64,000 nt of DNA from a virus (Duplodnaviria; Caudoviricetes). The position numbers were made by a program, and so were the translations under genes. Where the stretch lies: the IMG/VR virus record IMGVR_UViG_3300044656_000123, positions 1 to 64,000 of that record. One strand, written 5' to 3'. Of the stretch, positions 27,813 to 60,684 are shown piece after piece (positions within the stretch are counted from its first letter, which is position 1; every line of letters starts with the position of its first letter). Under the pieces are notes generated by a model. That model had not been told where the DNA came from. It saw only the letters and a list, made by a program, of their open reading frames with translations, and did no database searches.

Positions 27813-27849
27813 AGGGACCGCGCCGTAAGATCTTACGGCGCGGTCCCTT
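27812..27849. terminator. Perfect 38-bp palindrome (terminator of the minus-strand operon)
   Basis: AAGGGACCGCGCCGTAAGA|TCTTACGGCGCGGTCCCTT. Confidence 0.7.
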
Positions 27850-27862
27850 AGCGTTGTTGAAG

Positions 27863-43563: not shown

Positions 43564-43592
43564 TTGACATATGCGTATTAGCATGGTATATT
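43564..43592 (+). promoter_or_regulatory. Class 1 promoter
   Basis: TTGACA TATGCGTATTAGCATGG TATATT. Confidence 0.8.
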
Positions 43593-44568
43593 TAATCCAT
43601 CAAGGCGAAGGGAGAAAGAACGATGAACGAAATGCAAGCGATGCTTGAACACTTGGCAGGGCTAAGAGGCAGGCCGCGCAATCAACACACTGAGGCCGCG
43701 TTAAAGGAGCTTGAAGAGTCTATGCATGCATGGCCTGAGCCGTACAGTGACAAAGAGATTGAACATATTCTTGCTGACCGACGTATAGCCGCGCTGCTAG
43801 TGCTGTTATGTCCACCTGAGTACAAAGACCGCGTTACAAAGATTGCTCAGGCGTACAGTGACGGTAATCACTGGCAATACTACTAGGGGAGAACAGCGAT
43901 GAACGAAGTTACCACAACGCTGTTTCTCATCCCGGCGACGATCTTTACAGTATGTATAGCGGCTGTCCTGTTTCTTGCTCCGAGAAAATGACAGTCAATC
44001 TATGGATTGTGGCGATAAGCATAGTTATTGCATTGTTGATGTGCTGGTTACTAGAAAGGTCTTAGTTATGAATCCGCAAGAAATAGCCGCGCAAGCGGTA
44101 CGCTATTGCAATGCTATGGACGCTTACGAGGCCCGTGAAGCCTATCTACGCAAGTTAGCGTTTTCGACGCTCCGGGGCATGGTGGTACGCATTGCGCAAG
44201 GCGATGAGGACTATGTACAAAGCGTCACAACGCAGCCGAAAAGTGGCCTTGTTGCTACGCTGGTAGAGTTTGAGTGTGGCGGCGCGGTGCAAGAGGCTGA
44301 AGAACTGCTAAAAACAATGGGTGTAGACGTAGAACAGCTTGAAGAAATAAGGAGAGCAGGTAAAAATGAGAGAGATTGAACAATATTACAGTTACCTTGT
44401 GATGCCAGAGGACCGGGACCCTAGTGAGGACCTTAAAAAGGCAAATATGATAGCTGTCATTGGACTACGCTGCTATCAGAGCTAGCGCGGCGCGGCGTCG
44501 TACCGGAAGGTGAGTATATTGTAGAAGTTTGTTGGTAGTCTAGTCGCAAAGTAAGGAGAATAAGGCAC

Positions 44569-45306
44569 ATGGCTGAGCAAATTAAAGAGACGCACGATCA
44601 GAAACTTGAACGTTACAAGAAGAAGATTAAGGCCCTGCTAGAACTAGCTAAAAGTTCTAATCAGGAAGAGGCCGCAAGTGCTAGCGCTAAAGCGATGCAG
44701 CTATGTATGCAATTTAACATAGACGTAGCAGAGGCCGGGGAATGGACAGCAGACAGCTACGATACCCTAGACATCAAGATAGGGCGCGATAAATGGAAGC
44801 GCTTGCTGCTTGATGGGCTATGCAAGTACAACTTTTGTCGCCGCTTCTACCAAGCACGCTACGCACGTGCCTACATTGTAGGCGAGAAAGACAACCGTGA
44901 ATTAGTAGAGCTTATGGTGTACAGCCTGATCAAGAGCCTAGAGGAGATGGCTAAAGAGGCGTACAAAAACTATGGCGTGGGCCATGCGCGTCACTGGAAA
45001 GATGAGTATTATACAGGTGCAACAGCAGCAATATGGGACCGCTTAGAGAAGGAAAGGGGAGCAGTTGAGCATGCCGCGCAAATTGAAGCCGCTTCGCCAG
45101 CAGGGACCGGGCTAGCTACGCAAACGATGGCTCTAATTGTTGTAAAAAATGACGCGCTAGAAGAGGCGTGCAATCGCATTGTCAAGAACGTTAGAAAAGA
45201 GCCAAAGAAGCGCTACAAGTTTGATACTGGTGCGTTTCACCGTGGTTATGAGGACGGTAAAAATGTAGCGATGACAAACCGCAAACAGATCGGAGCAGCA
45301 AGCTAA
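44569..45306 (+). CDS. DUF2786-like N-terminal domain protein
   Basis: KIKALLELAKSSNQEEAASASAKAMQL...NI; ends GYEDG. Confidence 0.75.
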   Translation: MAEQIKETHDQKLERYKKKIKALLELAKSSNQEEAASASAKAMQLCMQFNIDVAEAGEWTADSYDTLDIKIGRDKWKRLLLDGLCKYNFCRRFYQARYARAYIVGEKDNRELVELMVYSLIKSLEEMAKEAYKNYGVGHARHWKDEYYTGATAAIWDRLEKERGAVEHAAQIEAASPAGTGLATQTMALIVVKNDALEEACNRIVKNVRKEPKKRYKFDTGAFHRGYEDGKNVAMTNRKQIGAAS

Positions 45307-45677
45307 TGCAAATGCTAATATTAACGGACGATGAAGCGACAGAGCTACGCCTTTCACTTAGAAGCTCTATGCTCAACACGGAAAGCTCAATAAACTTGCT
45401 AGGTGAACTTATGTCGCCCGGTGTCATGGAAGTGTGGAAACACAGTCAAGAGCTACGCCAAACGATACTAGACAAGCTAGACGGGAAAGTACCAACGGTC
45501 CCCATGACACCGCAAGTAGCCGCGTACCTGAAAGACAGGCTACGCAAGCTTCGAGACTTGCGCGGAATTGACTTTGAGACAGCAAAGCTAAATTTCAGGC
45601 AGGAGCTTTCTGCGTTCGGTCTTGATGTGCTGTCCGACGAAAACGAGGATTATTACGGCGTAGGGCTAGGAGAGTAA
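45306..45677 (+). CDS. Hypothetical protein
   Basis: TAATG coupling to the upstream gene. Confidence 0.55.
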   Translation: MQMLILTDDEATELRLSLRSSMLNTESSINLLGELMSPGVMEVWKHSQELRQTILDKLDGKVPTVPMTPQVAAYLKDRLRKLRDLRGIDFETAKLNFRQELSAFGLDVLSDENEDYYGVGLGE

Positions 45678-45745
45678 CCCGGCGCGGTCTTTGGCAAAAC
45701 CTGTACAAAATTTTGTACAGGTTTTTTATTGTCAAAAATTAGGTA

Positions 45746-45774
45746 TTGACATATGCGTAAAGACATGTTATATT
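45746..45774 (+). promoter_or_regulatory. Class 1 promoter
   Basis: TTGACA TATGCGTAAAGACATGT TATATT. Confidence 0.8.
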
Positions 45775-45809
45775 GTTCACAGATCAAACAACGCAAGGAG
45801 TTATGAGAA

Positions 45810-46442
45810 ATGGACACAGTAAGAATCTACGGGACAGACCGGGAAGTAAACGCGGTCAACGCTATCTTGAAAAGAGCGCCGCTTGACGCTGATTGGTACT
45901 TTCAATGTAGCGGTAAAGACATCTGGTATCACGTTTTCCCGGCTTCCGACCTTATAAACGATGTAAACCTAGTTGCCGCGCTTTCTCATCTTTACCCGCT
46001 TATGCTGTATCGCTTCTATGATGGTGACAACCTGATGCAAGGCAGGCGGGCCGGGATAAACAGCGACGACTACACCAACTACAACAATAGCCGTAACTGG
46101 AATCTGCACGACATTTTGCGCCGTAATTACTCGCTAGGCTATAACCTATATCCGATGGACATGCGGTGTAACCTTACGGCGGCTTACCACAACCTAGCAG
46201 CAACGATCTATAAAGCGATGGCAAATGAAGCCCTGATCGTTGAAGAGGCCATAGTACGCGAATCCTCGCTTGCACCTTCTGAAGAGGAATACCCTATTAT
46301 TAACGCACGTCAATGGCTTGCGGCGCGGCGTCACGACTTCATCAAGGCTCAGAACAAGACCGACGATCTACGCCAACGCGTGACCTTGATTAGCGCGGTT
46401 ATTACAATGATTGACGAACACATAAAGGGCAACAGAGCATGA
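45810..46442 (+). CDS. Hypothetical protein
   Basis: AAGGAG RBS. Confidence 0.6.
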   Translation: MDTVRIYGTDREVNAVNAILKRAPLDADWYFQCSGKDIWYHVFPASDLINDVNLVAALSHLYPLMLYRFYDGDNLMQGRRAGINSDDYTNYNNSRNWNLHDILRRNYSLGYNLYPMDMRCNLTAAYHNLAATIYKAMANEALIVEEAIVRESSLAPSEEEYPIINARQWLAARRHDFIKAQNKTDDLRQRVTLISAVITMIDEHIKGNRA

Positions 46443-46852
46443 TAAACGAGGAAAGTTTAAAGACCCGCGTGCTAGAAAGACGCATAGAAGCACACTGTAA
46501 ATTGCCCCTTGCCCCGGAATTAGCTCAGCAATTTAAAGATGCGTACGAGCACATCAACAGAGCAACGTACTGGCAAGAGGATTCTCACCCCTGGCAAGAG
46601 ACCGGGCGCTATGTACGATCTTTGTCAAACGGTGCTTTAAAATCGTTTCTTGTCATGCAGATACGCGAAATACAGCGCATGATACCAGATGATTTCATTG
46701 ACTTTCTTGAAGCTGATAACACGACACTCAGAAACGAGATACTAAACCGCGTTGGCGCTGAAATGCAGCAATACAACTACATCGGCCTTTTGCTTGAAGA
46801 AATTGAGTTGTTAAGATCGACAGTTAGAAAATTTGAGGGAGAACAATCATGA
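46439..46852 (+). CDS. Hypothetical protein, paralog of the N-terminus of the next gene
   Basis: WQEDSHPWQ...LEADNTTLRNE versus WDESAKPWQ...IEVENDRLRKE. Confidence 0.6.
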   Translation: MINEESLKTRVLERRIEAHCKLPLAPELAQQFKDAYEHINRATYWQEDSHPWQETGRYVRSLSNGALKSFLVMQIREIQRMIPDDFIDFLEADNTTLRNEILNRVGAEMQQYNYIGLLLEEIELLRSTVRKFEGEQS

Positions 46853-47583
46853 CAATTTCACGCATCGAGCATTACAGAGTCTTGCTTCTGATCACAGAGA
46901 TAACAAAGTTTAAAGATGGTTTTTATGGGAGCGATACAACACCAGCAACCAAAGAGCTAGACACGTTTCTCACCTACCTTGAGTTGCTTACGATGTGGGA
47001 TGAATCCGCTAAGCCCTGGCAACAAGCCGTGTTACTGGCAAACAGCAAAACAGACGGTAAAACGTACACCTACCTCATGAACACTTTACGCCGGGTTGAA
47101 GAGGCCGATGAAGCCACGATCTTTACGGTGATTGAAGTAGAAAACGACAGGCTACGCAAGGAAGTGCAGAAGGCCGCTATCATAGACAGGGACCGCATTG
47201 AACGCATTAAGGAGCTTCTTGACGAAAACAAGGAGTTAAACAGGCAGATCGAAGGTCTACGCGCCACAAACGATGATTTGATTGCAGAGGCAAGCGACAA
47301 CGAAGAAAGTCTAGCAGATGCCAGTGAAGAAGTTACGTCACTTGAAAACAAGGTAAATGACCTAGAGGACCGAATACAGGACCTAGAGGATGATTTGACG
47401 CAAGCAAAGAACGATCTAGAGGACATGGCTGCTGAACGCGATGAGTACAGGCGTGAATTGCGGCTTGCCAATGACGAACTAGACGAAGTTAAGGCCGAAT
47501 TAAGCCAAGCAAAAGATGATTATAGAAACGCGCTAGACGACGCTGAAGATCTTAGAGACAAGCTAGAACAGCACCAAATGTAA
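46849..47583 (+). CDS. Long acidic coiled-coil protein
   Basis: Continuous heptads over the C-terminal ~130 aa. Confidence 0.7.
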   Translation: MTISRIEHYRVLLLITEITKFKDGFYGSDTTPATKELDTFLTYLELLTMWDESAKPWQQAVLLANSKTDGKTYTYLMNTLRRVEEADEATIFTVIEVENDRLRKEVQKAAIIDRDRIERIKELLDENKELNRQIEGLRATNDDLIAEASDNEESLADASEEVTSLENKVNDLEDRIQDLEDDLTQAKNDLEDMAAERDEYRRELRLANDELDEVKAELSQAKDDYRNALDDAEDLRDKLEQHQM

Positions 47584-47613
47584 AACGGGTTTTAAAATTG
47601 TCATAAATACCCC

Positions 47614-47642
47614 TTGACATATGCGTAAAAGCATGGTAAATT
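47614..47642 (+). promoter_or_regulatory. Class 1 promoter
   Basis: TTGACA TATGCGTAAAAGCATGG TAAATT. Confidence 0.75.
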
Positions 47643-47696
47643 ATTGACAACGAAGCGATACAAAAAAACGAACGCAGAAAGTAAGGAGTAAGAAAC

Positions 47697-48722
47697 ATGG
47701 TTCAGTTTATTAAAAAGACAAAGACAAGCAGTGCTCAGGTGATTTTTGACAAAGAGACACTAGATAGCTTGCGAGCTACGTTTAGCGAAAAATACTTCGA
47801 TCTTAAGCTTGAACATAAAATATGGTCTCTGCCAGTGGCTTTCGGCTCTTGTCTCACCTGTCGCATGAATAGCCGCGTTATAAAGTTCGTCTACCACGAC
47901 ACGGCTATCGTGACATGGAACGAGGACAAAACGATCACACTCAACACCGGGGGCTTTATCAGCAATGCCACAAAAGAAAAATTAAACTTTGCACTTTCCG
48001 GTCACGGCTTCGTACAAACTGCGTGGGATGGCTCAGGACAATGGACGTTGCACCTTGTTGATACGTGGAAGCCATTGCAGGAGAACGGGCGACCTCACTA
48101 CCTGCCTTCGATCAAGCTCTATGATGGCCTGACATTTGAAGAGGATAATCATACAATCATCAGCACAGAGCCGCGCATTGACAAAGACACCTATGTAGAC
48201 CTCTTTGCACTGTACAAGGAGCTAGGTGGTAGGGGCCGCGCCGCCAACGCTCATGATGGTGTTAGCCTTGCTGAGTATGACAAGCTTATAGATCGTCTTG
48301 TCAAGCAGTACTGTGAGCTTGTCATAACCTGGGAGAACTTAGACCGCTACAACAATAACCACGCTGATTGTCATGTCTGTGATGAGTGGGAAGAAATTAT
48401 TGATCGTGGTCTAGATGAGGGTGTTATTAAACCTGCTGGACGATCAGGGACCATTAAAGAGCAGTGCTTAGGTTTACTGCGTACGCACGATGCACGTCAA
48501 GACGATGAGGACCGTGACCACCTGTTACAACACGTCAAACAAGGCAAGTTTAACAGCAGCATCGTATGGATAGCCTTGAAGATAGCACAGTTAAACCCTG
48601 TCTATTACATGCATCACAGCACATCGGAATACTACGCAGAAAGAAACCTTAAAACTATGCGACACTACACCGGGCGCATGTTACGCCGCATGCTGCATAA
48701 AGGCGTTGTCAACGTAGCATAG
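47697..48722 (+). CDS. Hypothetical phage protein
   Basis: YHDTAIV....ITLNTGG...TKEKLN pattern resembles a common phage early-protein family. Confidence 0.65.
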   Translation: MVQFIKKTKTSSAQVIFDKETLDSLRATFSEKYFDLKLEHKIWSLPVAFGSCLTCRMNSRVIKFVYHDTAIVTWNEDKTITLNTGGFISNATKEKLNFALSGHGFVQTAWDGSGQWTLHLVDTWKPLQENGRPHYLPSIKLYDGLTFEEDNHTIISTEPRIDKDTYVDLFALYKELGGRGRAANAHDGVSLAEYDKLIDRLVKQYCELVITWENLDRYNNNHADCHVCDEWEEIIDRGLDEGVIKPAGRSGTIKEQCLGLLRTHDARQDDEDRDHLLQHVKQGKFNSSIVWIALKIAQLNPVYYMHHSTSEYYAERNLKTMRHYTGRMLRRMLHKGVVNVA

Positions 48723-48786
48723 CTCTATCATCTAACGTCAATTCGGCGCGGCTTTAACACCGCGCCTCACAAGGAGAATACACAAT

Positions 48787-49134
48787 ATGGCATATCAGAC
48801 CGTGTTAAATACACAGCAGATCGAAGATACAAAACGTCTAATAGGTGAGCACACTGATATTATCACCGGATTTTTCACCAACGACAACAACGCTTTTAGC
48901 GCGGCTTTACGCATACTAGACCGCGCCGCGCCAACAAAAGACCCTGATATAGCAATAACCGCGCTGAAAGCCTACGTTTCTGATCGCATCGGCCTTGCAA
49001 TCAATCAGAACCATGATAAAACGCTAGCGTGCAACTTCACGCAGACCGGGTTAAACCTCGTAGATTGGTACGCAGTGCTCAGCATTTTGCAGGAGATAAA
49101 AGACGCTAAAGACTTAGATCAACAACCGTTTTAA
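48787..49134 (+). CDS. Hypothetical protein
   Basis: AAGGAG RBS. Confidence 0.6.
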   Translation: MAYQTVLNTQQIEDTKRLIGEHTDIITGFFTNDNNAFSAALRILDRAAPTKDPDIAITALKAYVSDRIGLAINQNHDKTLACNFTQTGLNLVDWYAVLSILQEIKDAKDLDQQPF

Positions 49135-49323
49135 GCCGCGCCGTTAACCTTAAATCACTTCTGTAAATGGTTATTTACGGAAGTGATTTTTTATTTGGTT
49201 GTAATTAAACCGCCATTTAATTAACCATTTATTACCGTTAATGCCCGTAATATAGGGTAATTAAATAGAAATTTTCTTACCCTATTCAATTTTACCAGTT
49301 TTTAAATTATCATAAATTAGGTA

Positions 49324-49352
49324 TTGACATATGTGTAAAAGCATGCTAATAT
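49324..49352 (+). promoter_or_regulatory. Class 1 promoter
   Basis: TTGACA TATGTGTAAAAGCATGC TAATAT. Confidence 0.75.
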
Positions 49353-49386
49353 TGTTCACAGATCAAACACAGCAAGGAGCAAACCG

Positions 49387-49491
49387 ATGAAGCTAAGCCA
49401 TGAATACGTCATTATCTGCGTTGCCATTATGATCATTGTCCCACTTGTGTTTATAGGTCTGTACTATGGCCTGGTTACGCTTATCCCATAA
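49387..49491 (+). CDS. 34-aa single-TM peptide, not in the ORF track
   Basis: AAGGAG RBS; MKLSHEYVIICVAIMIIVPLVFIGLYYGLVTLIP. Confidence 0.55.
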   Translation: MKLSHEYVIICVAIMIIVPLVFIGLYYGLVTLIP

Positions 49492-49502
49492 GGAGCAACA
49501 AC

Positions 49503-50096
49503 ATGATCACACATAAAGAAATACGCACGTCAACCGGGCTTACGTGGGACATGCTAAAAGATCAAGTGCTAGCACTTGGCAGACTTTTTTGCTCAGGTGT
49601 CGATGTATATGACAAGGCTATTGACTTCTGTGAGTACATCATGACACTGATGCAATGCATGGAAAACCATGACTACGAGGTAGAAGCAGACAAGGCTTTT
49701 ATGTGGTTGTACGTGGCCTCACATCAATACTACGTTCGTCACAGTCTTTGCATTGTCGGATACAAGAAATTTATTGATCTACTAGTACACCGTGATTATA
49801 GTCCTTACCCCGGCGCGATAGTTCGAGATAATTTGTATTGGCTCTTTACGCAGAAATGTTTTGTCACTCCTACACACGGCGCGGTGTTGTGGAATCTGTA
49901 CTTGACGACAGGTACAGAGCAAGAAGCTAAGCCGAATCTTAGCGCTTACATGACGTTTGCATTTCTCTATAAGCATATGCCTGTATGGTATCGCAAAGAC
50001 TTGCCCCCTACTGAGACATGGAAAAGAGAAGCGATATTCATGGCCTTACCTGCCATACTTGGCACTGATTTTTGTGAGATTCAAAAATTGCCATAA
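49503..50096 (+). CDS. Hypothetical protein
   Basis: AAGGAG RBS. Confidence 0.6.
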   Translation: MITHKEIRTSTGLTWDMLKDQVLALGRLFCSGVDVYDKAIDFCEYIMTLMQCMENHDYEVEADKAFMWLYVASHQYYVRHSLCIVGYKKFIDLLVHRDYSPYPGAIVRDNLYWLFTQKCFVTPTHGAVLWNLYLTTGTEQEAKPNLSAYMTFAFLYKHMPVWYRKDLPPTETWKREAIFMALPAILGTDFCEIQKLP

Positions 50097-50103
50097 ATAC
50101 CAC

Positions 50104-50132
50104 TTGACACATGCGTAAAGAAATGTTATATT
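50104..50132 (+). promoter_or_regulatory. Class 1 promoter
   Basis: TTGACA CATGCGTAAAGAAATGT TATATT. Confidence 0.75.
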
Positions 50133-50174
50133 GAGACCACGACAACGAACACACAAAGTAAGGAGTTGAGACAC

Positions 50175-50834
50175 ATGGAGAACTGGACAAACATCAATGA
50201 TATTATTGCCAAGTACAAGACAAAGTACGCGCTAGAGCCAAAGACAGAAGAAAAATGGCGTGAGGCTACTACGATCTACGCGGGTCACTTCTTCATCTTT
50301 CAAGACGCCGCAAAATTAGGTGAGGGAGGCGGTAAATGGCACCTCTTACACGCAGACAAGCACGCTAACACTACCTATGTGTATGGAAGCTATAGCAAAG
50401 AAAAGGTTGAAGAAGTTGCCGCGTGGCTCACTGAGACCGGGCCATTTACACGTATCAGTGAAATTACTGAGAAGTGCAGGAAAGCAAACAATAATTACTT
50501 TGAGTCTAGAGGCGGATTTAAGCGCTATTCCGGTTTCCCGAACGAAGTTGTGTACGCTGGACGTTTCTTCATCGAGCGACTACGCCAAAATTTTCCGCTC
50601 AGTCATAGCCGTTCAGAGACCACGTATCGTATTCTCTGCGTTGACGACAACGGAAGCGAGGTCACGAAGCTCAGCGAACATTATAACCTTGACTCTTGCA
50701 AGCGTCACATTGCAAAAATCACACAGTACGCCGCGCCGCGTACGAAGCCAACTGAGTACGAAGAATATTGCAACCGCGTCAACGCTGCGCATGGCTTGCG
50801 TTTCGGTGTCATTGACATTGAAGTACAGGAGTAA
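50175..50834 (+). CDS. Hypothetical protein with internal duplication
   Basis: IYAGHFFIF and VYAGRFFIE repeated domain. Confidence 0.6.
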   Translation: MENWTNINDIIAKYKTKYALEPKTEEKWREATTIYAGHFFIFQDAAKLGEGGGKWHLLHADKHANTTYVYGSYSKEKVEEVAAWLTETGPFTRISEITEKCRKANNNYFESRGGFKRYSGFPNEVVYAGRFFIERLRQNFPLSHSRSETTYRILCVDDNGSEVTKLSEHYNLDSCKRHIAKITQYAAPRTKPTEYEEYCNRVNAAHGLRFGVIDIEVQE

Positions 50835-50837
50835 AAC

Positions 50838-51149
50838 ATGCAACTGACTGAAGAAGAAGCGCTTGCTATGTTCCTGATCTTAAAAGCGTGCATAGTAGAA
50901 AATAACGTAGAAGGTGCAAGGCATTACATGCGCCAATATAAAGGTAGCTTAAAAAATGTCATAACGTTCGCTTCCAAGCTGTATGATACGATGCCATACA
51001 ACTATAGCAAGCCGGAATTAATCGGCAAGGTCATAGCGACTATTCAAGTCATAGACCCGGAAACAGGTGAACCGCGTGAAAGCTGTGAATGCAGCATGTG
51101 TACAAACAACACGGAATTAAAAGTAAACGAAGCGCATACAGGAGAATAA
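50838..51149 (+). CDS. Hypothetical protein
   Basis: AGGAG RBS. Confidence 0.55.
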   Translation: MQLTEEEALAMFLILKACIVENNVEGARHYMRQYKGSLKNVITFASKLYDTMPYNYSKPELIGKVIATIQVIDPETGEPRESCECSMCTNNTELKVNEAHTGE

Positions 51150-51154
51150 AAATC

Positions 51155-51874
51155 ATGGGTTTCACTGAGCAACTTTGCGAAAATCTTAAAATTACAGAGA
51201 AAGAACGCGAAAAACGCGCAGAATTATCCGCGCTATTTCAAAACGCGGTCTCTGCACTGGACGTTGACACGAAATTTTACCATACTGACAAACAAGGCCC
51301 GATGAGTATAGACCTTGCACGCCGGGACAAATGGGCAACTGTGTACCGTATGACACTACACATGATCTGCGAAGGTGAATATGATGTCATCATAGGTATG
51401 CAGCAGGAAGAAGGTAAAACATACCTGATCGACCACACTGAGCCGCTTACAGTAGAGGCATGGGTATACATTTCTAAGTTCTTTACCATCGTTTACAACA
51501 CATGGCTAGCTGAGCAAGAAGCGGCGCGGGTTGTGCCTGTAGCCAAGTACCTAGCCAAGATTGCTGTACCAGAAACGCCGTACTATCATAATTGGATAGT
51601 ATCAGAATACGAAACTAAGGCATGGAGTAAAGCGCTTCCCGGCGTGACTAGCCTTGTCTCTACACTGGATGAAACAAGTTTTATGACTCTCTGTTTTGCC
51701 GCGCAAAACGATGCGTTTCTAGCCGATAAAACTGGCAGAGTACCGCAAGAAGGTAAGGCATTTCAGTACATGACCAAATTGTACTTGCAGTTTCACCGCA
51801 TACGCCTAGCTGAGAAGCACGCCGGGTTTAATGAAGCGTCAAAAATTTTTGACGCGATGATAACACTAGAGTAA
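51155..51874 (+). CDS. Hypothetical protein
   Basis: Start MGFTEQ with AGGAG RBS. Confidence 0.6.
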   Translation: MGFTEQLCENLKITEKEREKRAELSALFQNAVSALDVDTKFYHTDKQGPMSIDLARRDKWATVYRMTLHMICEGEYDVIIGMQQEEGKTYLIDHTEPLTVEAWVYISKFFTIVYNTWLAEQEAARVVPVAKYLAKIAVPETPYYHNWIVSEYETKAWSKALPGVTSLVSTLDETSFMTLCFAAQNDAFLADKTGRVPQEGKAFQYMTKLYLQFHRIRLAEKHAGFNEASKIFDAMITLE

Positions 51875-51958
51875 CAACCTTGCTCCTTACTGAAAACCCG
51901 TAACTTTAAAGTTACGGGTTTAATTTTTGCCAATTTTTAAAATTGCTATAAAACCCTA

Positions 51959-51987
51959 TTGACATATGCGTTATGGCATGTTATATT
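51959..51987 (+). promoter_or_regulatory. Class 1 promoter
   Basis: TTGACA TATGCGTTATGGCATGT TATATT. Confidence 0.8.
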
Positions 51988-52676: not shown

Positions 52677-52979
52677 ATGCAATTGCTTAGATGGTTCTAC
52701 ATTGATGTGAACCGCGCTTCTTTCGGTAGTGAGCACACTGTCTTACTACCGAAAGACGGGCAAGTAGTATGCATCATGCAAGCTGAGAGACCGTATAGGA
52801 TAGCACTGCGTATCTTGTACGAAGAAAACGCAGAGATGCAAGAACGAACATTCTTTATGCTTGAAACTTTTCCGCAATACCACACAGGAAGCCCGGTAGA
52901 GCTTAAAGGCTTTACACACCTTGCAACCGTTCAACGCGGCGAACGCTCAGCATTTGACATCTTTGAAGTAATAAAGTAA
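52677..52979 (+). CDS. Conserved small phage protein (DUF7352-like)
   Basis: LPKDG.VV.I.Q...ERTF...TG...HLATVQ.....IFE pattern. Confidence 0.5.
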   Translation: MQLLRWFYIDVNRASFGSEHTVLLPKDGQVVCIMQAERPYRIALRILYEENAEMQERTFFMLETFPQYHTGSPVELKGFTHLATVQRGERSAFDIFEVIK

Positions 52980-53007
52980 AAGCATGCTTTTCATGCGATA
53001 AAGGGGG

Positions 53008-53616
53008 ATGAACATGGTAACAAGCAGAGTGCAGAAACTAAACCCATTACAGCAAGCGGTACTAAGTGATCTAGGGGTTTCATACCTTAGCAATCGCGGT
53101 ACAAGCGGCCTTACAGTATGGGGATTCATTCAGCGTAAAACGGTTATGATTCGTCTTGGCGTTATGACGTTTGAGGGTTGCGTTAAGGTACTACGAGAGT
53201 ACCGCGCCACCTACGAGACCAAAGTAAAAGAGCTAGCCGCGTACACGGATGAAGATGCTAAGATCGAGCGTGAACAGTATCAGCGTATCGTCAACGCGCT
53301 AGACATTGCAGTGGGTGACATCTTGATGGTTAAAACCATCGGGGCAACTGAGCAAGAAGCTATGTACACCGTATATATCCAGTATGCAACCGTAGACCAT
53401 GAACGGATTTTAATGGCAATCAAGGCACTCATACCAGATTATGACAGGATAGAGGCGTCACACTTCAGCGATGAATCTGGTATGAGTAGCGCAACATTCA
53501 ACGTGAAAGACCGCGCTATCTACGATGAAATAGAACTACTCTACGCACAAGGCGCTATAACATACGCTCAGCTATCAATGGGCCGCGCTAAGTACATGCA
53601 GGATGGAAGTTGTTAA
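53008..53616 (+). CDS. Hypothetical protein; C-terminal domain paralogous to 54299-54562
   Basis: YTVYIQYATVD...LLYA versus MTVTVQFKTID...LLYA. Confidence 0.6.
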   Translation: MNMVTSRVQKLNPLQQAVLSDLGVSYLSNRGTSGLTVWGFIQRKTVMIRLGVMTFEGCVKVLREYRATYETKVKELAAYTDEDAKIEREQYQRIVNALDIAVGDILMVKTIGATEQEAMYTVYIQYATVDHERILMAIKALIPDYDRIEASHFSDESGMSSATFNVKDRAIYDEIELLYAQGAITYAQLSMGRAKYMQDGSC

Positions 53617-53667
53617 CGTAAAGTAAAAGCATGCTTTTCATGCAGAAAGAATAGGAGAGCAAACGAT

Positions 53668-54258
53668 ATGGCAAAGATTGATTTTACATGGACAGATGGA
53701 CACAAGGACACTGTAGCCACCGGGACCGCTATGCTAGGGCAATTGCGCATAACAGCTCAGATTGTGTTTGATTATAACCATGACTGGCTTTGGCGCGGTA
53801 CTTTCACCGATCAGTACCAGAACGGCGCGGTAAAAAATCCACGTGCAAAACACGAACGCAACGTGTTTAAATACTTTGTGCCTACCAACACGGTACGCGA
53901 ACACTTGAAGAGCATGCTAGAGCAAGGTGTAGAGCTACGCGAAGCCCGTACTAAGGCTCTTGAATACGTCCGAGAGGATATGCGTATCACTGCGAGTCCA
54001 GAAGATAGCGGCTACTACGCCGTAGCCGTGATTGTAACCGTGTCTATCCTGGTTAAGCACGCGCAGGACGCTAACCAATGGGTAGACCTGGCAACCGATA
54101 GCCTCTATGGTATCGAAGGAAAGTATGCATACGTCAAGCCGCAGGATGACGAGTACATCAAAGAGGTTGTGCAGGAGTGTACAGACAACGCGCTCGTTAT
54201 GGCACATAGTACGGTAAAACAGATTAAAGAGGCGGACAACGGCATTTTCGAGAACTAG
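53668..54258 (+). CDS. Hypothetical protein, paralog of 54643-55335
   Basis: Shared KNP...YF.P.NTV...AR.KA...EDM...GY...GIE. Confidence 0.65.
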   Translation: MAKIDFTWTDGHKDTVATGTAMLGQLRITAQIVFDYNHDWLWRGTFTDQYQNGAVKNPRAKHERNVFKYFVPTNTVREHLKSMLEQGVELREARTKALEYVREDMRITASPEDSGYYAVAVIVTVSILVKHAQDANQWVDLATDSLYGIEGKYAYVKPQDDEYIKEVVQECTDNALVMAHSTVKQIKEADNGIFEN

Positions 54259-54298
54259 ACCATAAAAGCATGCTTTTCATGCAGTAAGGAGCAAGAAA

Positions 54299-54562
54299 AT
54301 GGTAAGTGTAGAAGAAAAAGATTTCATGACGGTCACGGTACAGTTTAAGACCATTGACTATCATCAAGTCATAGAGGATTTAACGAAGATTTTCCCCGGT
54401 TTTAGTGAGGTCGGAAGCGTTGGGTACACTGGTAACGGGATAAGTACCGCTACAGTAAAAACGGATTCTTGCACAGTCTTTAGCCGCTTGACACTGCTCT
54501 ATGCTCGTTCATGGTTAACTTTTGCCTCTATCTCTGTAGGTGAGTACAAAGAAGTACGCTAA
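54299..54562 (+). CDS. Hypothetical protein (paralogous domain)
   Basis: AGTAAGGAG RBS. Confidence 0.6.
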   Translation: MVSVEEKDFMTVTVQFKTIDYHQVIEDLTKIFPGFSEVGSVGYTGNGISTATVKTDSCTVFSRLTLLYARSWLTFASISVGEYKEVR

Positions 54563-54642
54563 CAACTAAAAGCATGCTTTTCCTATCAATAAGCATGCTT
54601 TTCTTAGCGCTTAGCGCTACTAGCACAGTAAGGAGTTACAAA

Positions 54643-55335
54643 ATGATCGTAGATTCTGCCAAGTGGCAAGAGACTAACAAGCATGATGTATACCTGTACC
54701 AGCAAGCACAGTTAGGGCCATTTATTATTGACATTAACGTAGGTCCTGATTTTACACACAATTGGATAGAGCTAAAAGGCACTGTACTCACTGAGCCGGA
54801 ACCGCATGCACTAAAAAACCCCTACTATACCGGGTGCCTGGGTGAGTATCCTTACTTCCTACCAGATAATACCGTAGCAAAATTGACAAAGTATTATATA
54901 GAGCAACGCGGCTATACGCCACAACGAGCACGCAACAAGGCATACAGTGACGTGGTAGAGGACATGGCTATTGCTCTAGCACCTGACCATGCAGGATATG
55001 AAGCTTTTTACATCCTGGCAACTGTACACATGCGCATAGAGGCCGGGGATAGTTCGGACCTCATTACACTAGCATCACGGTCTAGTATGGGCATTGAAAT
55101 CAAGACAAGTGCAACTGCATGGCGGGCGGAACGGGAAAGAAAGGTAAGAACTGCATCATACTCAGAACCGGAAAGGCACGTAGAAGAGACAAGACAAGCA
55201 TTAGCTGTGAAAGCAGAAAGAACTGCAAAGAGGGCAATACATGCGTCACTAGGAATAATCAGGCATATAAAGCGTGATGTGCCAACAAGTGCATTTACGG
55301 ATGTTGTGCGAGAAATCCAAGAAAACAAGAAATAG
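54643..55335 (+). CDS. Hypothetical protein, paralog of 53668-54258
   Basis: Start MIVDS with AGTAAGGAG RBS. Confidence 0.65.
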   Translation: MIVDSAKWQETNKHDVYLYQQAQLGPFIIDINVGPDFTHNWIELKGTVLTEPEPHALKNPYYTGCLGEYPYFLPDNTVAKLTKYYIEQRGYTPQRARNKAYSDVVEDMAIALAPDHAGYEAFYILATVHMRIEAGDSSDLITLASRSSMGIEIKTSATAWRAERERKVRTASYSEPERHVEETRQALAVKAERTAKRAIHASLGIIRHIKRDVPTSAFTDVVREIQENKK

Positions 55336-55423
55336 ATGCAACATGTGTCATAGTGTTAGAAAACGCATAACATGCAACGTGTGTCATAGTTCAGAATAGC
55401 GGTGAAAGATGCAACGTGTATCA
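55336..55423. repeat. Three copies of ATGCAACRTGTRTCA at 36-37 bp period
   Basis: Copies at 55336, 55372 and 55409. Confidence 0.8.
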
Positions 55424-55509
55424 CGCTCCTGATCTCACCAGAAAACCCGGCTCTAGTCACCAGCTAGAGCCGGGTTTTCTTTTACCATATAAAGAACATA
55501 AAACCATGC

Positions 55510-55538
55510 TTGACATATGCTATTTCATATGCGATACT
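55510..55538 (+). promoter_or_regulatory. Class 1-like promoter
   Basis: TTGACA TATGCTATTTCATATGC GATACT. Confidence 0.65.
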
Positions 55539-55588: not shown

Positions 55589-56569
55589 ATGGCTAACATC
55601 ATTGGTGCAACGTTCTATTTCGCCTCTACTCAAATTTGTTGTGATTGTGCAGAAAAGAGGCTATCTGATTATGGTCTAGCTTGTGATGAGATTAAAGAGG
55701 TACTAGGCTATCAATCGCGTAGCGTGTTTAGTCGTTTGTGGGATGAATGGCCTATCCGCTATGAACACGGTAAAGAGTACGGTGTCTATTTCTTAGAAGT
55801 TGACAACTATGTAGAGTACACCAGCTATAGAGGTAATGTGCAGTATTGGCTAGACATGTCTGCTTTTACTGAGCAAGATAATGATAGCCTTATCTATATC
55901 TCTACTGTTAACGGTGTGCCTACTGCGTCTAAAATCAACAATGGGGATAGCTACGTATTAACAGAACGCAGTCACTATGTAGAGAACAAAGACCGTGAAA
56001 CTATAACCCGCGTGCTTGCAAAGACTACTGCATTAACTGATCTAAGGGATATAGAGCAAATTACTGATGAGTACGATACTAGAGGCGAAATGTTGACGTG
56101 TGAATCATGTGATGCAATGATGATAGAGGAATACACGATTGATTGTTACAACTGTGATAAGACTATAGCGCATGGTCACACGGCTTATGATATTGAGTAC
56201 GGTAATTCACTGGACGATTACAACGGTATGCCGCGTGTAATGCGCTTGTGCCTACGCTGTGAGCTTAATAGGCGTCAAGCAATCGACAATGCTATCATGT
56301 CTGCATTGATGCAACAACACAAAGAAACCGGGTCTAGATGGTACGCTCTTTATACTGGTGACATTGCAAACAGGGGATTTTATGAAGTCTATGAAGAGGT
56401 AAAGCATAGTGAATCCCTGATCTTTGCTAAGCTGAATCAGAAAGTTAAGGCTATCATCGAAAAAGCGTACTACGATGAAACTACAGAGTCACTTGCTAAG
56501 TTTAAAGAAACCTGCACAAGCGCTATAGTTCGCTTAGACCGTAAATATGATTATGATTCTAGCTTTTAA
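55589..56569 (+). CDS. Hypothetical Cys-rich protein
   Basis: Several CxxC motifs; AGTAAGGAG RBS. Confidence 0.65.
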   Translation: MANIIGATFYFASTQICCDCAEKRLSDYGLACDEIKEVLGYQSRSVFSRLWDEWPIRYEHGKEYGVYFLEVDNYVEYTSYRGNVQYWLDMSAFTEQDNDSLIYISTVNGVPTASKINNGDSYVLTERSHYVENKDRETITRVLAKTTALTDLRDIEQITDEYDTRGEMLTCESCDAMMIEEYTIDCYNCDKTIAHGHTAYDIEYGNSLDDYNGMPRVMRLCLRCELNRRQAIDNAIMSALMQQHKETGSRWYALYTGDIANRGFYEVYEEVKHSESLIFAKLNQKVKAIIEKAYYDETTESLAKFKETCTSAIVRLDRKYDYDSSF

Positions 56570-56750
56570 CTCCTGATCAGTCACTAGGCACCCGGCTCTA
56601 GCTAGAGCCGGGTTTTTTTGTTCTCTGCACACCAGCTATGTCTGCACTCTATCAACTGATCAGGAGCAAACACACCAGCTATACCTGCACACCAGAAAAC
56701 CCGGCTCTAGCTGGTGACATAGTACCTAGTCATGGTATAGACCACTTGCT

Positions 56751-56994
56751 TGTAATTTTTCCCTTAGTTCTATAACTTCCCTATGGAAAGTGACTCATAA
56801 TCGCGTTTAAATGCGTTTCTGAGGGTGCAAAAGTCTAGCCATAGAATCACCCGTCTAAAGTCTGCAAGGGGCTTTCTCGTTAATCGGCTTTCTCGTTAAT
56901 CGTAGGCCCAAAGAGAGGCATTTCAGAAACGCTGGTGTATCTACACAGGGACCTCTAAAAACCCTCAGATTTCTATTTAAATGCGATTAAATAG
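56751..56994. repeat. 244-bp element, copy 1
   Basis: Matches 60105-60348; self-complementary ends. Confidence 0.9.
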
Positions 56995-57175
56995 CATTGT
57001 CGCATGTCTACTAGAATATGATAACCTGCACTCAAGACATTAGGCATTACAAGCATAACGGGTTTTATGGGTTTTCAAAAATTGCTGTAAAATCCGCTTG
57101 ACACATGCTAGTAGATATGCAATACTTGACAAAGATTCAACACACTAAACAACGTAAGGAGATGAGACAAGCGCT

Positions 57176-57571
57176 ATGCAACACAGAGAGAGGTATCCTA
57201 AAAACTGGGCAAAATTAGCGCTTGATTGCAAGGAAAAAGCGAACTGGACGTGTCAACATTGCGGCTTATACATCCCTAGAGAGGGTGTACAGATGGTTTC
57301 ACGTAAGGGGAAACCGTGGACTATGTATCTGTGTGCCGCACACATAGACCATGACACTGAAAATGAGAACCCGCGTCTACTTGCTCTATGTCTGATATGT
57401 CACGCTAAATACGACTATTCACAGGAGCAAATTAAGAGGCGTATCGAAGCTGAACAAAGACGACATGCTATTTTAATTGCACAAGCGGGTTACACACCAG
57501 CAAAGACACGTCTAGTCAACATTGAACGGTATAGGGCACATAAAAGAAGTAAGGAGTTGCAAACAGCATGA
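57176..57571 (+). CDS. HNH endonuclease-like protein
   Basis: YPKNW...CQHCG...AAHIDHD..N...LLALCLICHAKYD. Confidence 0.8.
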   Translation: MQHRERYPKNWAKLALDCKEKANWTCQHCGLYIPREGVQMVSRKGKPWTMYLCAAHIDHDTENENPRLLALCLICHAKYDYSQEQIKRRIEAEQRRHAILIAQAGYTPAKTRLVNIERYRAHKRSKELQTA

Positions 57572-58317
57572 ATTATGATGAGACGATTGCACATTATGAA
57601 GCAAGCATAAACCGTGTTCAGCGTGCATGTAACACTATTGCGTGTATGCTAGAACAAAGACACGGCTATATCAATGCTTGTCAAGATGATTGCTACTTAT
57701 CTTTGTTGAGACCGGATGAAAGTGTCATATACGTTGACACTGGTGTTTATATCTGGTTGGAAGATAAGCAGGAACAAAACATACAGCAAATTAAAAGTGA
57801 CCTTGCACAATGGAATAAAGTACTAAGCGTGTTAAAAGCGGAATTACGCGCTATCCATAGGAAAAATAAGGAGCAAGAAGCCAAGAAAAATGTACGTTGT
57901 TATACTTGCCTCAAAATGTACAGAACTGAGCAAGAAGGGGATAGTACAGACATCTATGTAGGCATGGATGTAAATATCTGCTTGCATCCTTGCTCAGATG
58001 GCAAGGAACATTATATCTGTTTTTCCTGCTATTGTGAGCTAGGCACAACTGAAGATTTTACGGTTATTCTACCTGTCTACTGTATAGCTATGCTGCACAA
58101 TTATCATAGCTATAAGTACCTTAAACCTATCTGGTGTGTTATCTACACAAGCACAAACATGCATGAAATAGAGAGGATACACCGTAAATTAGAGGATAAA
58201 GCCTATAGAGGCTTATGCGGTACTAGCTACGCGGATAGCCGCTTAAGGTCATACCGCCTATTAACGACAAACACCGTCAAGGCTAGCAAAGCCGGGTTAT
58301 GCATGACAGGAGTATAG
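57568..58317 (+). CDS. Hypothetical protein with Cys/His module
   Basis: CYTC...PCSDGKEHYICFSC. Confidence 0.6.
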   Translation: MNYDETIAHYEASINRVQRACNTIACMLEQRHGYINACQDDCYLSLLRPDESVIYVDTGVYIWLEDKQEQNIQQIKSDLAQWNKVLSVLKAELRAIHRKNKEQEAKKNVRCYTCLKMYRTEQEGDSTDIYVGMDVNICLHPCSDGKEHYICFSCYCELGTTEDFTVILPVYCIAMLHNYHSYKYLKPIWCVIYTSTNMHEIERIHRKLEDKAYRGLCGTSYADSRLRSYRLLTTNTVKASKAGLCMTGV

Positions 58318-58469
58318 AGCCGTGAAAATCTATGATGAATCTCTGTATTGTGCAGAGTGCGATACAGAGATCAGTACTGAGCAAGCGCTATTTTGTGACG
58401 GTCTTTGTGATGATTGCTATGAAGAGTGCGAAAAACTAAACACCAGCAAACAATAAGGAGAATAAGAGC

Positions 58470-59210
58470 ATGATTACCGATACACTTTATCAATCCGTTA
58501 ACACCGTTGTTTATGATGGCATGCCTACAGACGGCTATGACGGTCACTACAAAGAAATCGTCATAGCTGAACAATGGGGTTTTAGAGTTGTCTGGTGTAT
58601 GGAAGTTGCAAGCGATGGTACGCAGTATACACATCTCTACAGACTTGAAAAACTACGCAAGCTTACACCAGAACAAAAGGCTATGCTAGGTCCCTACGTT
58701 GCGTACGGTCTTTATGATGTTGAGTCTCGTTTGTGGCTAGGCATCACTGGCATTTACTATTCTAAGCAAGAAGCGCTAGACGCATTTAAGGAGAAAGTGT
58801 TTATAACTAACCATAATCGCGGCTTTACTGATCTTGCGTACGCGCTAGAGCAAGCGCTTGACGGTATACAGTTTTTTAGACAGGATACCTATTGTTACTG
58901 TCATGATTGCGCGTTGAAAGTGCTCTTTAATGGCTCTAGAGCACGTATGCTCTACAGTCTTAAGCATAATATATTCAAGGATATAGAGGGTTTTAGCTAT
59001 GGCCTCTATCATGAGTATAGCGCCTCACTTGCCGATACTCCAACCTATGAGAACGGTGTCAATTGCTCAGAATGTGGCAATAGCTTGCTAGAGCCTCTAG
59101 ACACTGATTATGATGAAGATATAGCCGTTACTGGCATAGACCCTGATCAGGACATGACAGGGAATTATGATGGCTCTATACCGTGTGACTTCGACGCGCA
59201 ATCAATGTAA
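58470..59210 (+). CDS. Hypothetical Zn-ribbon protein
   Basis: CHDC...CSECG; AAGGAG RBS. Confidence 0.6.
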   Translation: MITDTLYQSVNTVVYDGMPTDGYDGHYKEIVIAEQWGFRVVWCMEVASDGTQYTHLYRLEKLRKLTPEQKAMLGPYVAYGLYDVESRLWLGITGIYYSKQEALDAFKEKVFITNHNRGFTDLAYALEQALDGIQFFRQDTYCYCHDCALKVLFNGSRARMLYSLKHNIFKDIEGFSYGLYHEYSASLADTPTYENGVNCSECGNSLLEPLDTDYDEDIAVTGIDPDQDMTGNYDGSIPCDFDAQSM

Positions 59211-59269
59211 GTAGCTTGTCACCAGCTAGGCACCCGGCTCTAGCTGGTGACACATAAGGAGAATACAAC

Positions 59270-59620
59270 GTGAATAGAAATTACTGCACTAAGGAGCATA
59301 CACCAGAAAATCAGGAGCAAGCTAGACAAAAACTGCTAGAGCTATGCCCACGTGGAACTACTGTGTATTGTTTCGTGACTGCACTCAATAGCCATAGCAC
59401 ACCACGTTATGAGATGGCAGTGATACACATGTATGGCGGCGTACCTGATCTTAAGAACATAACCGCGTGGATACACATTTTTACCGGATGGCGCTATTAT
59501 GATCGCGCATGGACTACTAACGGGATTCAGTGTCAAGGTAACTACTATGATAGCATTGTCGCTAATTTGTCCGATAGACTGTACAATGATAGAGCCGCGT
59601 TAATTGCGGTAAAAAAGTAA
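59270..59620 (+). CDS. Hypothetical phage protein, paralog of 59624-60001
   Basis: GTTVYC...NIT.....TGWRYY...V..LS versus GDTIYC...NIT...TGTRFY...V..LS. Confidence 0.65.
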   Translation: MNRNYCTKEHTPENQEQARQKLLELCPRGTTVYCFVTALNSHSTPRYEMAVIHMYGGVPDLKNITAWIHIFTGWRYYDRAWTTNGIQCQGNYYDSIVANLSDRLYNDRAALIAVKK

Positions 59621-59623
59621 GGA

Positions 59624-60001
59624 GTGTCAACAATGGCTAGAGGCGTTTATATTACACTGTCAACGCAAGAAGAGACAAACGAGCTAAGAAGCGGTACAAT
59701 GAAGTATCTACGGTCTTTTATACAAGCTGGTGATACCATCTATTGCAAGCTGGTGTACAAAACGTCCAGCAATTTACCGGGTGCTACGCGTGGTTATGCA
59801 TTGATGGCATATTGCAGTGAAACGGGCAAAATTGCCAACATTACGCATGACGTTGCACTAGTCACAGGAACACGGTTCTATAGTGGTGAACCGCAATGTA
59901 TGATGGTTAGGGGAGAAGATGTAAAATCCGTTGTTAAAACACTTTCTTTTCTCCTGTTCAATGAAGATAATAGTAAGCTTAACTGTGATATCTGGTGTTA
60001 A
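59624..60001 (+). CDS. Hypothetical phage protein (paralog of the previous gene)
   Basis: Shares the motifs listed for 59270-59620; AGTAAGGAG RBS. Confidence 0.65.
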   Translation: MSTMARGVYITLSTQEETNELRSGTMKYLRSFIQAGDTIYCKLVYKTSSNLPGATRGYALMAYCSETGKIANITHDVALVTGTRFYSGEPQCMMVRGEDVKSVVKTLSFLLFNEDNSKLNCDIWC

Positions 60002-60104
60002 CGCTCAATACTGAGTATACGGGTTTTAGAGGCAAGTTTTAAACTTGCCTCTTTTTTGTTCTCTGCACACCAGCTAGAGCCGGGTCTCTCTGCATTGTTC
60101 ATCC

Positions 60105-60348
60105 TGTAATTTTTCCCTTAGTTCTATAACTTCCCTATGGAAAGTGACTCATAATCGCGTTTAAATGCGTTTCTGAGGGTGCAAAAGTCTAGCCATAGAA
60201 TCACCCTACTCATCTTTGCAAGGACCTCTCTTGACAATCGGCCTTGTTGCCAATTGTGGCGCGATTAAATGGCATTTTAGAAACGCTGGTGTATCTATAC
60301 AGGGACCTCTAAAAACCCTCAGATTTCTATTTAAATGCGATTAAATAG
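60105..60348. repeat. 244-bp element, copy 2
   Basis: Matches 56751-56994. Confidence 0.9.
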
Positions 60349-60435
60349 GTATTGACAAATGTCTGTAGGCATGCGATACTTGACATACAACTTAATAATT
60401 TCTAAGACCTGAACACAGGTAGAAAGTAAGGAGCA

Positions 60436-60684
60436 TTGAACATGCATACAGGATTTTACACGGGCTATCAATCATTACGCGTCAAGGTTATACGCTTTTC
60501 TGCTAAGCAGTGTATTGTAGCTACTCAACTTATCATCTTTGGTGATAAGGGACAATGGAAGTTAAAACTAGTCGATATGTCCAAAGATGACTACGCTAAA
60601 AAACTGATGGCTACAGATAACAAACGTTGGATGTACACAGGCAAGGATAGAAGTCAATATTTTTTCTGGTGTGATATCCGTTAA
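60436..60684 (+). CDS. Hypothetical protein
   Basis: Promoter at 60352-60380 and AGTAAGGAG RBS. Confidence 0.55.
   Translation: MNMHTGFYTGYQSLRVKVIRFSAKQCIVATQLIIFGDKGQWKLKLVDMSKDDYAKKLMATDNKRWMYTGKDRSQYFFWCDIR

Follow-up and report, generated by a model that had tools for sequence, protein, structure and literature searches.

Phage non-coding RNAs are mostly unannotated. Protein-sponge RNAs of the CsrB/RsmZ type carry repeated short motifs in the unpaired regions of a stable RNA, and HEARO/omega RNAs and bridge RNAs combine a constant scaffold with a variable segment beside a nuclease gene. According to the parts of the literature cited here, Bacillus has two copies of 6S RNA (PMC8414754; on 6S RNA see also PMC8876501), and the product RNAs made from 6S RNA are recognized by a start at about nucleotide 40-44, GG at positions 4/5 or 5/6 and an upstream A (PMC8414754, PMC9670815). 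Promoters with a weak -35 box are reported to be more sensitive to 6S RNA, with many exceptions (PMC2848244). At the level of DNA, the single-strand promoters Frpo1 and Frpo2 of the F plasmid are almost identical to each other and are separated by about 5 kb (PMC9849209; Frpo promoters are also covered in PMC11541004). PeSLs are cassettes of a promoter and a stem-loop that recombine (PMC2839356, PMC4122927), while EGeRS1 denotes repeated regions, rich in inverted repeats, that precede early operons of plasmids and lack a strong promoter (PMC8708921). Here we compare with these systems a duplicated 244-bp non-coding element of a siphophage-type genome, the 96,118-bp virus record IMGVR_UViG_3300044656_000123. 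The first 64,000 bases of this record, in which both copies lie, are referred to as the window.

The element is real and non-random, it is conserved beyond this genome, and it lies outside every family tested; it is probably an undescribed small RNA gene. The portions of the literature searched contain no report of it. We number it 1-244, position 1 being 56751 in copy 1 and 60105 in copy 2 (Table 1). An earlier model reading of the bare sequence (the original prediction) had described two copies of equal length with an identical first 102 bp, a near-identical last 78 bp and a middle of about 60% identity, and this description is borne out. The gapless alignment holds 29 differences in total (15 transitions and 14 transversions), with none in 1-102, 27 in 103-166 and two in 167-244 (C to T at 174 and 194). 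Identity in the core, 103-166, is 37/64 or 58%. The best 64-nt window contains 27 differences, against a maximum of 20 in 100,000 permutations, which puts the clustering far beyond chance. Within the core, the 16-bp tandem repeat is exact in copy 1 (16/16), as had been claimed, and matches at 9/16 in copy 2, where one box contains a perfect TTGACA.

A search for further copies in the rest of the genome, which the original prediction had proposed, was run with BLAST and with a covariance model built from both copies, and exactly these two were found. For comparison with metagenome contigs we covered four of the 15 listed runs, X3, X5, X10 and X13, of which X3 shares its sample with a possible source of this DNA. 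Since each core lies on its own 181-bp contig in X3, and since X5, from another sample and study, has a contig with copy 1 and its right flank, the repeat is not an assembly artefact. The contigs of the X3 and X5 strains begin at element position 44, which suggests a difference between their copies around position 74. Beyond the 244 bp, homology, though diverged, continues over 25 bp following the terminators and some 30 bp following the element. The duplication is therefore older and wider than 244 bp, and either conversion or selection, or the two together, has preserved the similarity of its arms.

Folding of the element gives a long interrupted stem, the rod, which spans positions 48-239 with arms of about 55 nt and 192 nt between the stem ends. 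The self-pairing ends and the alternative helix of the original prediction were both recovered. The closing stem P1 corresponds to 48-63/224-239 and P2 to 68-76/211-219, the latter with a probability of 0.99 on both strands and in both copies, whereas the alternative helix, 63-72/173-182, is mutually exclusive with P2. Inner helices extend the rod to 101/184; they are stable in copy 1 and give way to other pairings in copy 2 on the plus strand. The z-scores of the rod are -4.5 and -6.2 on the plus strand and -4.1 and -5.1 on the minus strand. Sites that close 14 of 15 pairs at a distance of 150-230 nt occur at 11 positions, in six places of the 96-kb genome, and two of these places are the copies themselves. 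A perfect 10-bp alternative helix arises in 4 of 5000 shuffles, and the second fold lies above the rod by 2.7 kcal/mol in copy 1 and by 9 kcal/mol in copy 2. When growing prefixes of the plus strand were folded, the alternative form was present in both copies up to nt 185 (0.90-0.96) and P2 and P1 took over at nt 222-244; on the minus strand the alternative form never appears. The core itself has z-scores of 0 to -1, no structure beyond chance, and no convincing helix is shared by the cores of the two copies.

Part of the element is also found in another replicon. In X13, a 3573-bp contig of depth 37 matches element 41-119, with 10 differing letters and two gaps in 79 positions, while the remainder of the 8-kb phage stretch has a depth of 0-3.5, except for a short palindromic motif at 54568-54611 (depth 33-55). 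Because of this contrast in depth, the homolog is assigned to a different replicon, probably a related phage, which keeps this part of the element at about 85% identity although none of its genes aligned at the 80% threshold. Loose ends of the same homolog are present in X3 and X10 and not in X5, that is, it occurs in three of the four runs compared. At its left loose end the core of the leader hairpin is readable. At its right loose end, 14 of the 19 positions of 120-149 that both copies share are found in register, with the 16-nt period (compared by eye over 30 letters, no gap assumed), and the first box resembles, again by eye, the second box of copy 2.

The reading we favour, tentatively and with somewhat less than even confidence, is that the element specifies a duplicated stand-alone RNA, with a stem that presents a variable, single-stranded loop as a decoy; that the element is an RNA gene at all we hold to be a little better than an even bet. 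In its favour, the unit is non-coding and lies between a terminator and a promoter. Such a phage gene would specify a stand-alone non-coding RNA of about 190-210 nt, in two paralogues, transcribed more likely from the plus strand. As the computed folding suggests, the RNA would adopt a transient early form first and snap into the rod once the 3' arm has been made, and the rod would be expected, as for end-paired RNAs in general, to protect it. Two 16-nt boxes, predicted to be single-stranded and conserved in three sequences, would then be displayed, and these may bind and titrate a host protein, either a regulator or a defence factor, so that the RNA would act as a decoy. The pattern of differences is consistent with gene conversion holding the arms nearly identical, while the loop may escape conversion and diversify through mutation and box shuffling into two specificities. 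Like the sponge RNAs of the CsrB/RsmZ type, the element has repeated boxes that are predicted to be unpaired; it differs in having only two 16-nt boxes, no GGA motif array and no Rfam match over the element.

A number of observations weigh against this reading. Either strand can form the rod about equally well, and the minus strand has more G-U wobble pairs in it than the plus strand. The constant helices show no compensatory changes, as judged from two full sequences only, and the two non-core changes in the alternative fold are one-sided. No 3' arm of the homolog was visible in the contig alignments, and 10 related virus records, of which only two are near complete and those distant, contain no further copy. 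Unlike the other non-coding units of this phage, which run from promoter to terminator, the element has neither a strong promoter nor a terminator of its own. The strict spacing, with no indel in the core and indels of +1 and -1 in the homolog, would also suit the geometry of a DNA-protein complex, and the decoy step itself is one that we infer. The original prediction had proposed a scaffold RNA with a variable targeting loop. A structured RNA with constant scaffold and variable loop is the best reading, whereas nothing in the phage genome points to targeting: pairing of the cores to 97 phage translation-start regions was no better than that of shuffles (50/60 and 19/60 did as well), on which ground antisense control of phage genes was rejected, and no core match longer than 12 nt exists elsewhere in the phage genome.

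Each copy is situated between an intrinsic-terminator-like site and the next promoter. The claim that each lies just upstream of an early promoter holds for copy 2, which is followed by the intact promoter at 60352. Copy 1 adjoins a decayed promoter that scores better as a leftward one, its intact rightward promoter being that at 57098. The leftward site shares 11 identical nt with the phage promoter at 62609, is absent at copy 2 and has its predicted start at the end of the rod. The element itself has only weak promoter matches on the plus strand, of which one, in the 47-bp segment, begins right at the edge of the duplication and another lies inside the 5' arm; neither strand has a terminator after the rod. 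Candidate 5' ends would be element 35, 55 and 103 on the plus strand and 238 on the minus strand. The deviations from pairing had been described as G-U compatible on the plus strand, and this was right for the two non-core changes, which turn G-C into G-U in the plus-strand alternative fold, and for two pairs of the closing stem; however, five rod pairs in copy 1 or four in copy 2, and one pair of the leader hairpin, are G-U only on the minus strand. Because of these minus-strand wobble pairs, the leftward site at copy 1, the weak plus-strand promoters and the absence of a terminator, a clean call of the plus strand is weakened, and it is only slightly favoured as the strand that would be transcribed.

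Table 1. Features of the 244-bp element and its surroundings (positions in the window; a dot in the strand column means that no strand is assigned).
Feature	Position	Pairing partner, copy 2 or element numbering	Strand	Remarks
Copy 1 of the 244-bp unit	56751-56994		. (+ slightly favoured)	
Copy 2 of the 244-bp unit	60105-60348		.	
Variable 64-bp core, copy 1	56853-56916		.	copy alignment; structure not beyond chance
Variable 64-bp core, copy 2	60207-60270		.	copy alignment
Two tandem 16-bp boxes in core	56870-56901	copy 2: 60224-60255, degenerate	.	skeleton retained in homolog
Closing stem P1, 5' arm	56798-56813	pairs with 56974-56989; copy 2: 60152-60167/60328-60343	.	pair probability 0.96-0.97
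Stem P2, 5' arm	56818-56826	pairs with 56961-56969; copy 2: 60172-60180/60315-60323	.	pair probability 0.99
Inner rod helices	56828-56851	pair with 56934-56957	.	
Alternative 10-bp helix, 5' side	56813-56822	pairs with 56923-56932; copy 2: 60167-60176/60277-60286	+	
Early-folding hairpin with internal loop	56823-56852	element 73-102; copy 2: 60177-60206	+	excludes inner rod
Constant 47-bp segment outside rod	56751-56797	copy 2: 60105-60151	+	small hairpin 25-41 and weak -35/17/-10
Weak promoter-like match in 5' arm	56819-56847	element 69-97	+	3/6, 17 bp, 5/6
Intrinsic-terminator-like site upstream of copy 1	56590-56620		+	
Intrinsic-terminator-like site upstream of copy 2	60028-60058		+	
Leftward promoter-like site at right end of copy 1	56996-57024		-	4/6, 17 bp, TG-extended 4/6
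Sigma-70-type promoter of HNH operon	57098-57126		+	
Sigma-70-type promoter immediately after copy 2	60352-60380		+	
Small stand-alone HNH endonuclease gene	57176-57571		+	131 aa; neighbour, probably not part of element

Several other explanations have to be weighed against a decoy RNA. A promoter device at the level of DNA, either an activator-dependent promoter or a fold-back promoter or priming site (Frpo/ssi-like) on a single strand, would leave the loop free to vary. The 3/6-17-5/6 match at 69-97 predicts a start at 103/104, exactly at the core border, where the first core base is a purine in each copy; its -35 is fully paired in the rod, the last two -10 bases are mismatched, and the +1 and -1 indels of the homolog preserve the distance between the two boxes. 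Frpo1 and Frpo2 are likewise a near-identical pair a few kb apart (PMC9849209), and the element shares with the Frpo/ssi systems a long imperfect fold-back, promoter-like boxes in one arm and a position upstream of early genes. It departs from them in its second exclusive fold, in belonging to a double-stranded DNA phage and in the strong ordinary promoter after each copy. Moreover, an equal match arises in 305 of 5000 shuffled arms, the -35 is poor at only 3/6 whereas the phage's own promoters are near consensus, DNA folding lacks the full rod in three of four cases, and the second fold and the conserved boxes would be left unexplained. We know of no single-stranded entry stage in siphophages, which counts against a fold-back promoter, and the device is on balance rather unlikely. 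The same grade applies to a repeated terminator-element-promoter cassette of the PeSL or EGeRS1 kind, which would insulate early operons and supply the homology by which the 3.35-kb block could be deleted, duplicated or exchanged. Both copies do occupy terminator-to-promoter gaps of a variable early region rich in repeated promoters and short palindromes. As with the PeSLs of T4-type phages and the EGeRS1 of pLS20 plasmids, they are repeated non-coding blocks with inverted repeats near terminators and promoters, and a possible substrate for recombination. However, the layout is constant-variable-constant, and membership in the PeSLs was rejected because the promoter and the terminator both fall outside the shared 244 bp and there are only two copies, not many. 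Nor does recombination need a conserved bistable fold or 16-nt boxes, and read depth is flat, alike inside and outside the interval, in X3 and X5. Excision would remove 3354 bp; no recombination joints were seen in the four contig sets, although a deletion of this kind would escape detection in contigs. A rod-shaped phage RNA of the 6S kind, mimicking an open promoter, holding the host RNA polymerase holoenzyme and shifting transcription to phage promoters, appears quite unlikely. The element resembles 6S RNA in its length of about 190 nt, its rod with closing stem and internal loops and its alternative conformations, and a 15 x 17-nt bubble could form if one weak 4-bp helix opened. It comes in two paralogues, as in Bacillus (PMC8414754), and the phage promoters have a perfect -35, weak -35 promoters being those reported as more sensitive (PMC2848244). 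Yet 19 of 28 phage promoters are of the extended -10 type, the other class reported as sensitive. RF00013 has no match at E <= 10 in the phage's own genome or in 241-nt scans of each copy, and none in five related virus records, a model that matched in 7 of 14 control genomes and may miss a divergent 6S RNA. Similarity to E. coli 6S RNA is not above that of shuffles. A conserved central bubble and a shared apical helix are both lacking, the core being variable and unstructured (z near 0) with tandem boxes; and of the product-RNA hallmarks, three placements on inspection each show some and none shows all, the start site compatible with the bubble lacking GG at 4/5 or 5/6. In a related version, which we regard as unlikely, the two copies would be bistable open-promoter mimics that act on host RNA polymerase, either as a decoy of the 6S type or as a fold-back template, and carry an exchangeable loop of -35-like 16-nt boxes. 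Box shuffling between the paralogues would then diversify the loop, and a tunable phage RNA might re-allocate host sigma factors. No phage-encoded 6S-like RNA appears in the parts of the literature consulted.

The remaining explanations are less probable. A neutral history, in which an inverted repeat was duplicated long ago and has been homogenised by gene conversion, would account for the identical arms and for the 15 transitions to 14 transversions, but not readily for the identity kept in another replicon whose genes fall short of 80%, nor for a core without indels, the conserved box skeleton and two non-random folds, and we hold it very unlikely. The original prediction had also offered a unit like a miniature inverted-repeat transposable element, here with 13-bp inverted ends inside TA. 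Element 48-239 does start and end with TA, but 47 bp to the left and 5 bp to the right of the inverted repeat are common to both copies, the homolog retains the left-hand portion, the genome has just two copies and no transposase is found among 126 open reading frames (ORFs), so the idea finds no support and is highly improbable. We rate as equally improbable that the RNA serves the neighbouring HNH protein, or another RNA-guided enzyme, as guide or scaffold, with the core selecting targets. The constant flanks around a variable middle and the HNH gene after copy 1, which proved to be real as claimed, would fit this. The nuclease is, however, a stand-alone protein with its own promoter, from a large family (560 clusters of small stand-alone nucleases), and no target is present in the phage genome. 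Six homolog loci were fetched of 61 records; in five of the six the upstream gene ends within a few bases of the HNH gene, leaving no room for an upstream RNA, and none of the six matches the covariance model of the element. The link between HNH gene and element is thus weak, as the gene lies beside one copy only, has its own promoter and is abutted by the upstream gene in those five loci. Reverse transcriptase, transposase, integrase, Cas and sigma families are all absent from the 126 ORFs (>=70 aa), most of which have no Pfam match, so that a remote member could be missed. In lacking an adjacent IscB, TnpB or IS110 protein and a conserved linkage of RNA and ORF, the locus differs from HEARO/OMEGA and bridge RNAs, and both were rejected, as was a retron msr-msd, for which repeats are present but RVT_1 gave no match at E <= 0.1. 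Extremely unlikely is an mRNA for a short peptide, such as one of the type I toxin kind, kept locked by pairing of its 5' and 3' parts. A metastable early fold, end-to-end pairing and a 42-codon frame open in both copies would be in keeping with one, but a shared frame is expected by chance (1668 of 3000 shuffles), three synonymous stand against 14 non-synonymous codons, the start is CTG/TTG without a ribosome-binding site, the period is 16 nt and NCBIfam gave no match; coding for a peptide was accordingly rejected. No tRNA was found in the element, and a tRNA or tmRNA was discarded, as were an operator family and, in the absence of any Rfam hit, a CRISPR-repeat mimic and a Y RNA, to which it bears some resemblance. 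A replication origin was likewise rejected, since no motif is shared elsewhere and AT-rich inverted blocks elsewhere are more origin-like.

Exact patterns had no match in viral contigs, while further patterns gave 6 and 13 matches there, all chance on inspection, and none was found in genome contigs; since the known homolog lacks one base in the stretch concerned, the genome-contig pattern and the 6-match viral pattern could probably not have hit it, and they are weak blanks. A 16-mer search of metagenomes returned at least 118 stretches, and among the matches listed none extends beyond about 30 nt. BLAST against phages gave no match, and against plasmids 99 records, all with chance pieces of 20-25 nt. 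Related phage loci were reached through the major capsid protein (10) and an endolysin alignment (two); none was reached through the HNH protein, an AAA protein or the helicase, and none in genome contigs. In the 10 related virus records, searched for copies as had been proposed, DNA comparison matched in none of five and in one of the other five (a single match of 28 nt, inside an ORF), and the covariance model gave two 7-bit hits in the first five and none in the second. The closest of these records (capsid 87%) starts one gene ahead of the ORF 60760 homolog, and the site of the element lies outside it. Rfam 15, including the CRISPR repeat, Y RNA, put and CsrB families, has no match at gathering score in the window, and of 11 weak hits in 56500-60600 none covers the element.

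The genome, with a terminal repeat of 317 bp, carries terminase, portal, capsid, tape-measure and tail genes, and the runs that contain the phage are soil and rhizosphere metagenomes. The endolysin has a relative of 37% identity that is named from a Ktedonobacterales genome bin, which by sequence gives only a hint of a Ktedonobacteria host. To our knowledge, almost no viruses of soil Chloroflexota have been studied. Should the element act as a decoy, whether of RNA polymerase or of a defence protein, host takeover by phages of soil Chloroflexota would include a route that runs through an RNA; if the element were only a repeated cassette, it would be a modest addition to known modular shuffling. 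Either way, a constant stem with a second early fold and a length-fixed variable loop in two copies amounts to a built-in loop-swap experiment. Close to the genome end lies a gene for an Acb2/Tad1 hairpin-domain protein, an anti-defence sponge (L002:16072-16287). This gene and the other promoter-to-terminator non-coding units of the phage fit a decoy role of the element but do not show it. Near the start of two of the non-coding units (window 13655 and 16665), and at one intergenic site (genome 65108), the sequence GCAACTAATAA is found, which is absent from the 244-bp element.

The neighbourhood of the element consists of co-oriented genes of unassigned function with near-consensus sigma-70 promoters. 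The early promoters (55510, 57098, 60352, 62609 and 43564-51959) are pseudo-palindromic, those at 55510 and 57098 also scoring leftward, and in three early promoters an additional TTGACA overlaps the -10 box. Of the 15 genomic occurrences of a 9-bp motif, CACCAGCTA, 13 fall within 55.4-65.1 kb (55449-65080 in genome coordinates); the motif often forms the arms of palindromes or of terminator-like hairpins, as a REP-like local repeat family. The palindromic motif AAAAGCATGCTTTT, a candidate operator, recurs between genes at window 52972-54600, differs in number among strains and is shared with the second replicon of X13. At 55144-55460, the end of ORF 54574 and the following gap, the strains in X3, X5 and X10 are densely divergent from the window. 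Window 59270-59620 and 59633-60001 hold adjoining, distant tandem paralogues of an unnamed family (25% identity over 103 aa, pairwise E 1e-6).

Farther away, a very AT-rich intergenic region at window 49135-49330, unrelated to the element, contains several hairpins, one of them of 17 bp, ahead of the promoter at 49324 (z -4.9). The AT-rich intergenic blocks at window 27200-27850 and genome 65600-66060 are homologous and inverted (about 80% identity over 297 bp), contain CCACAAA-type repeats, lie beside replication genes and are candidate origins. A MazG gene is present at window 38008-38646. The major capsid gene is followed by one for a 373-aa protein (L002:125-1243) that is extremely rich in Arg, Lys and Ala and is without a Pfam match.

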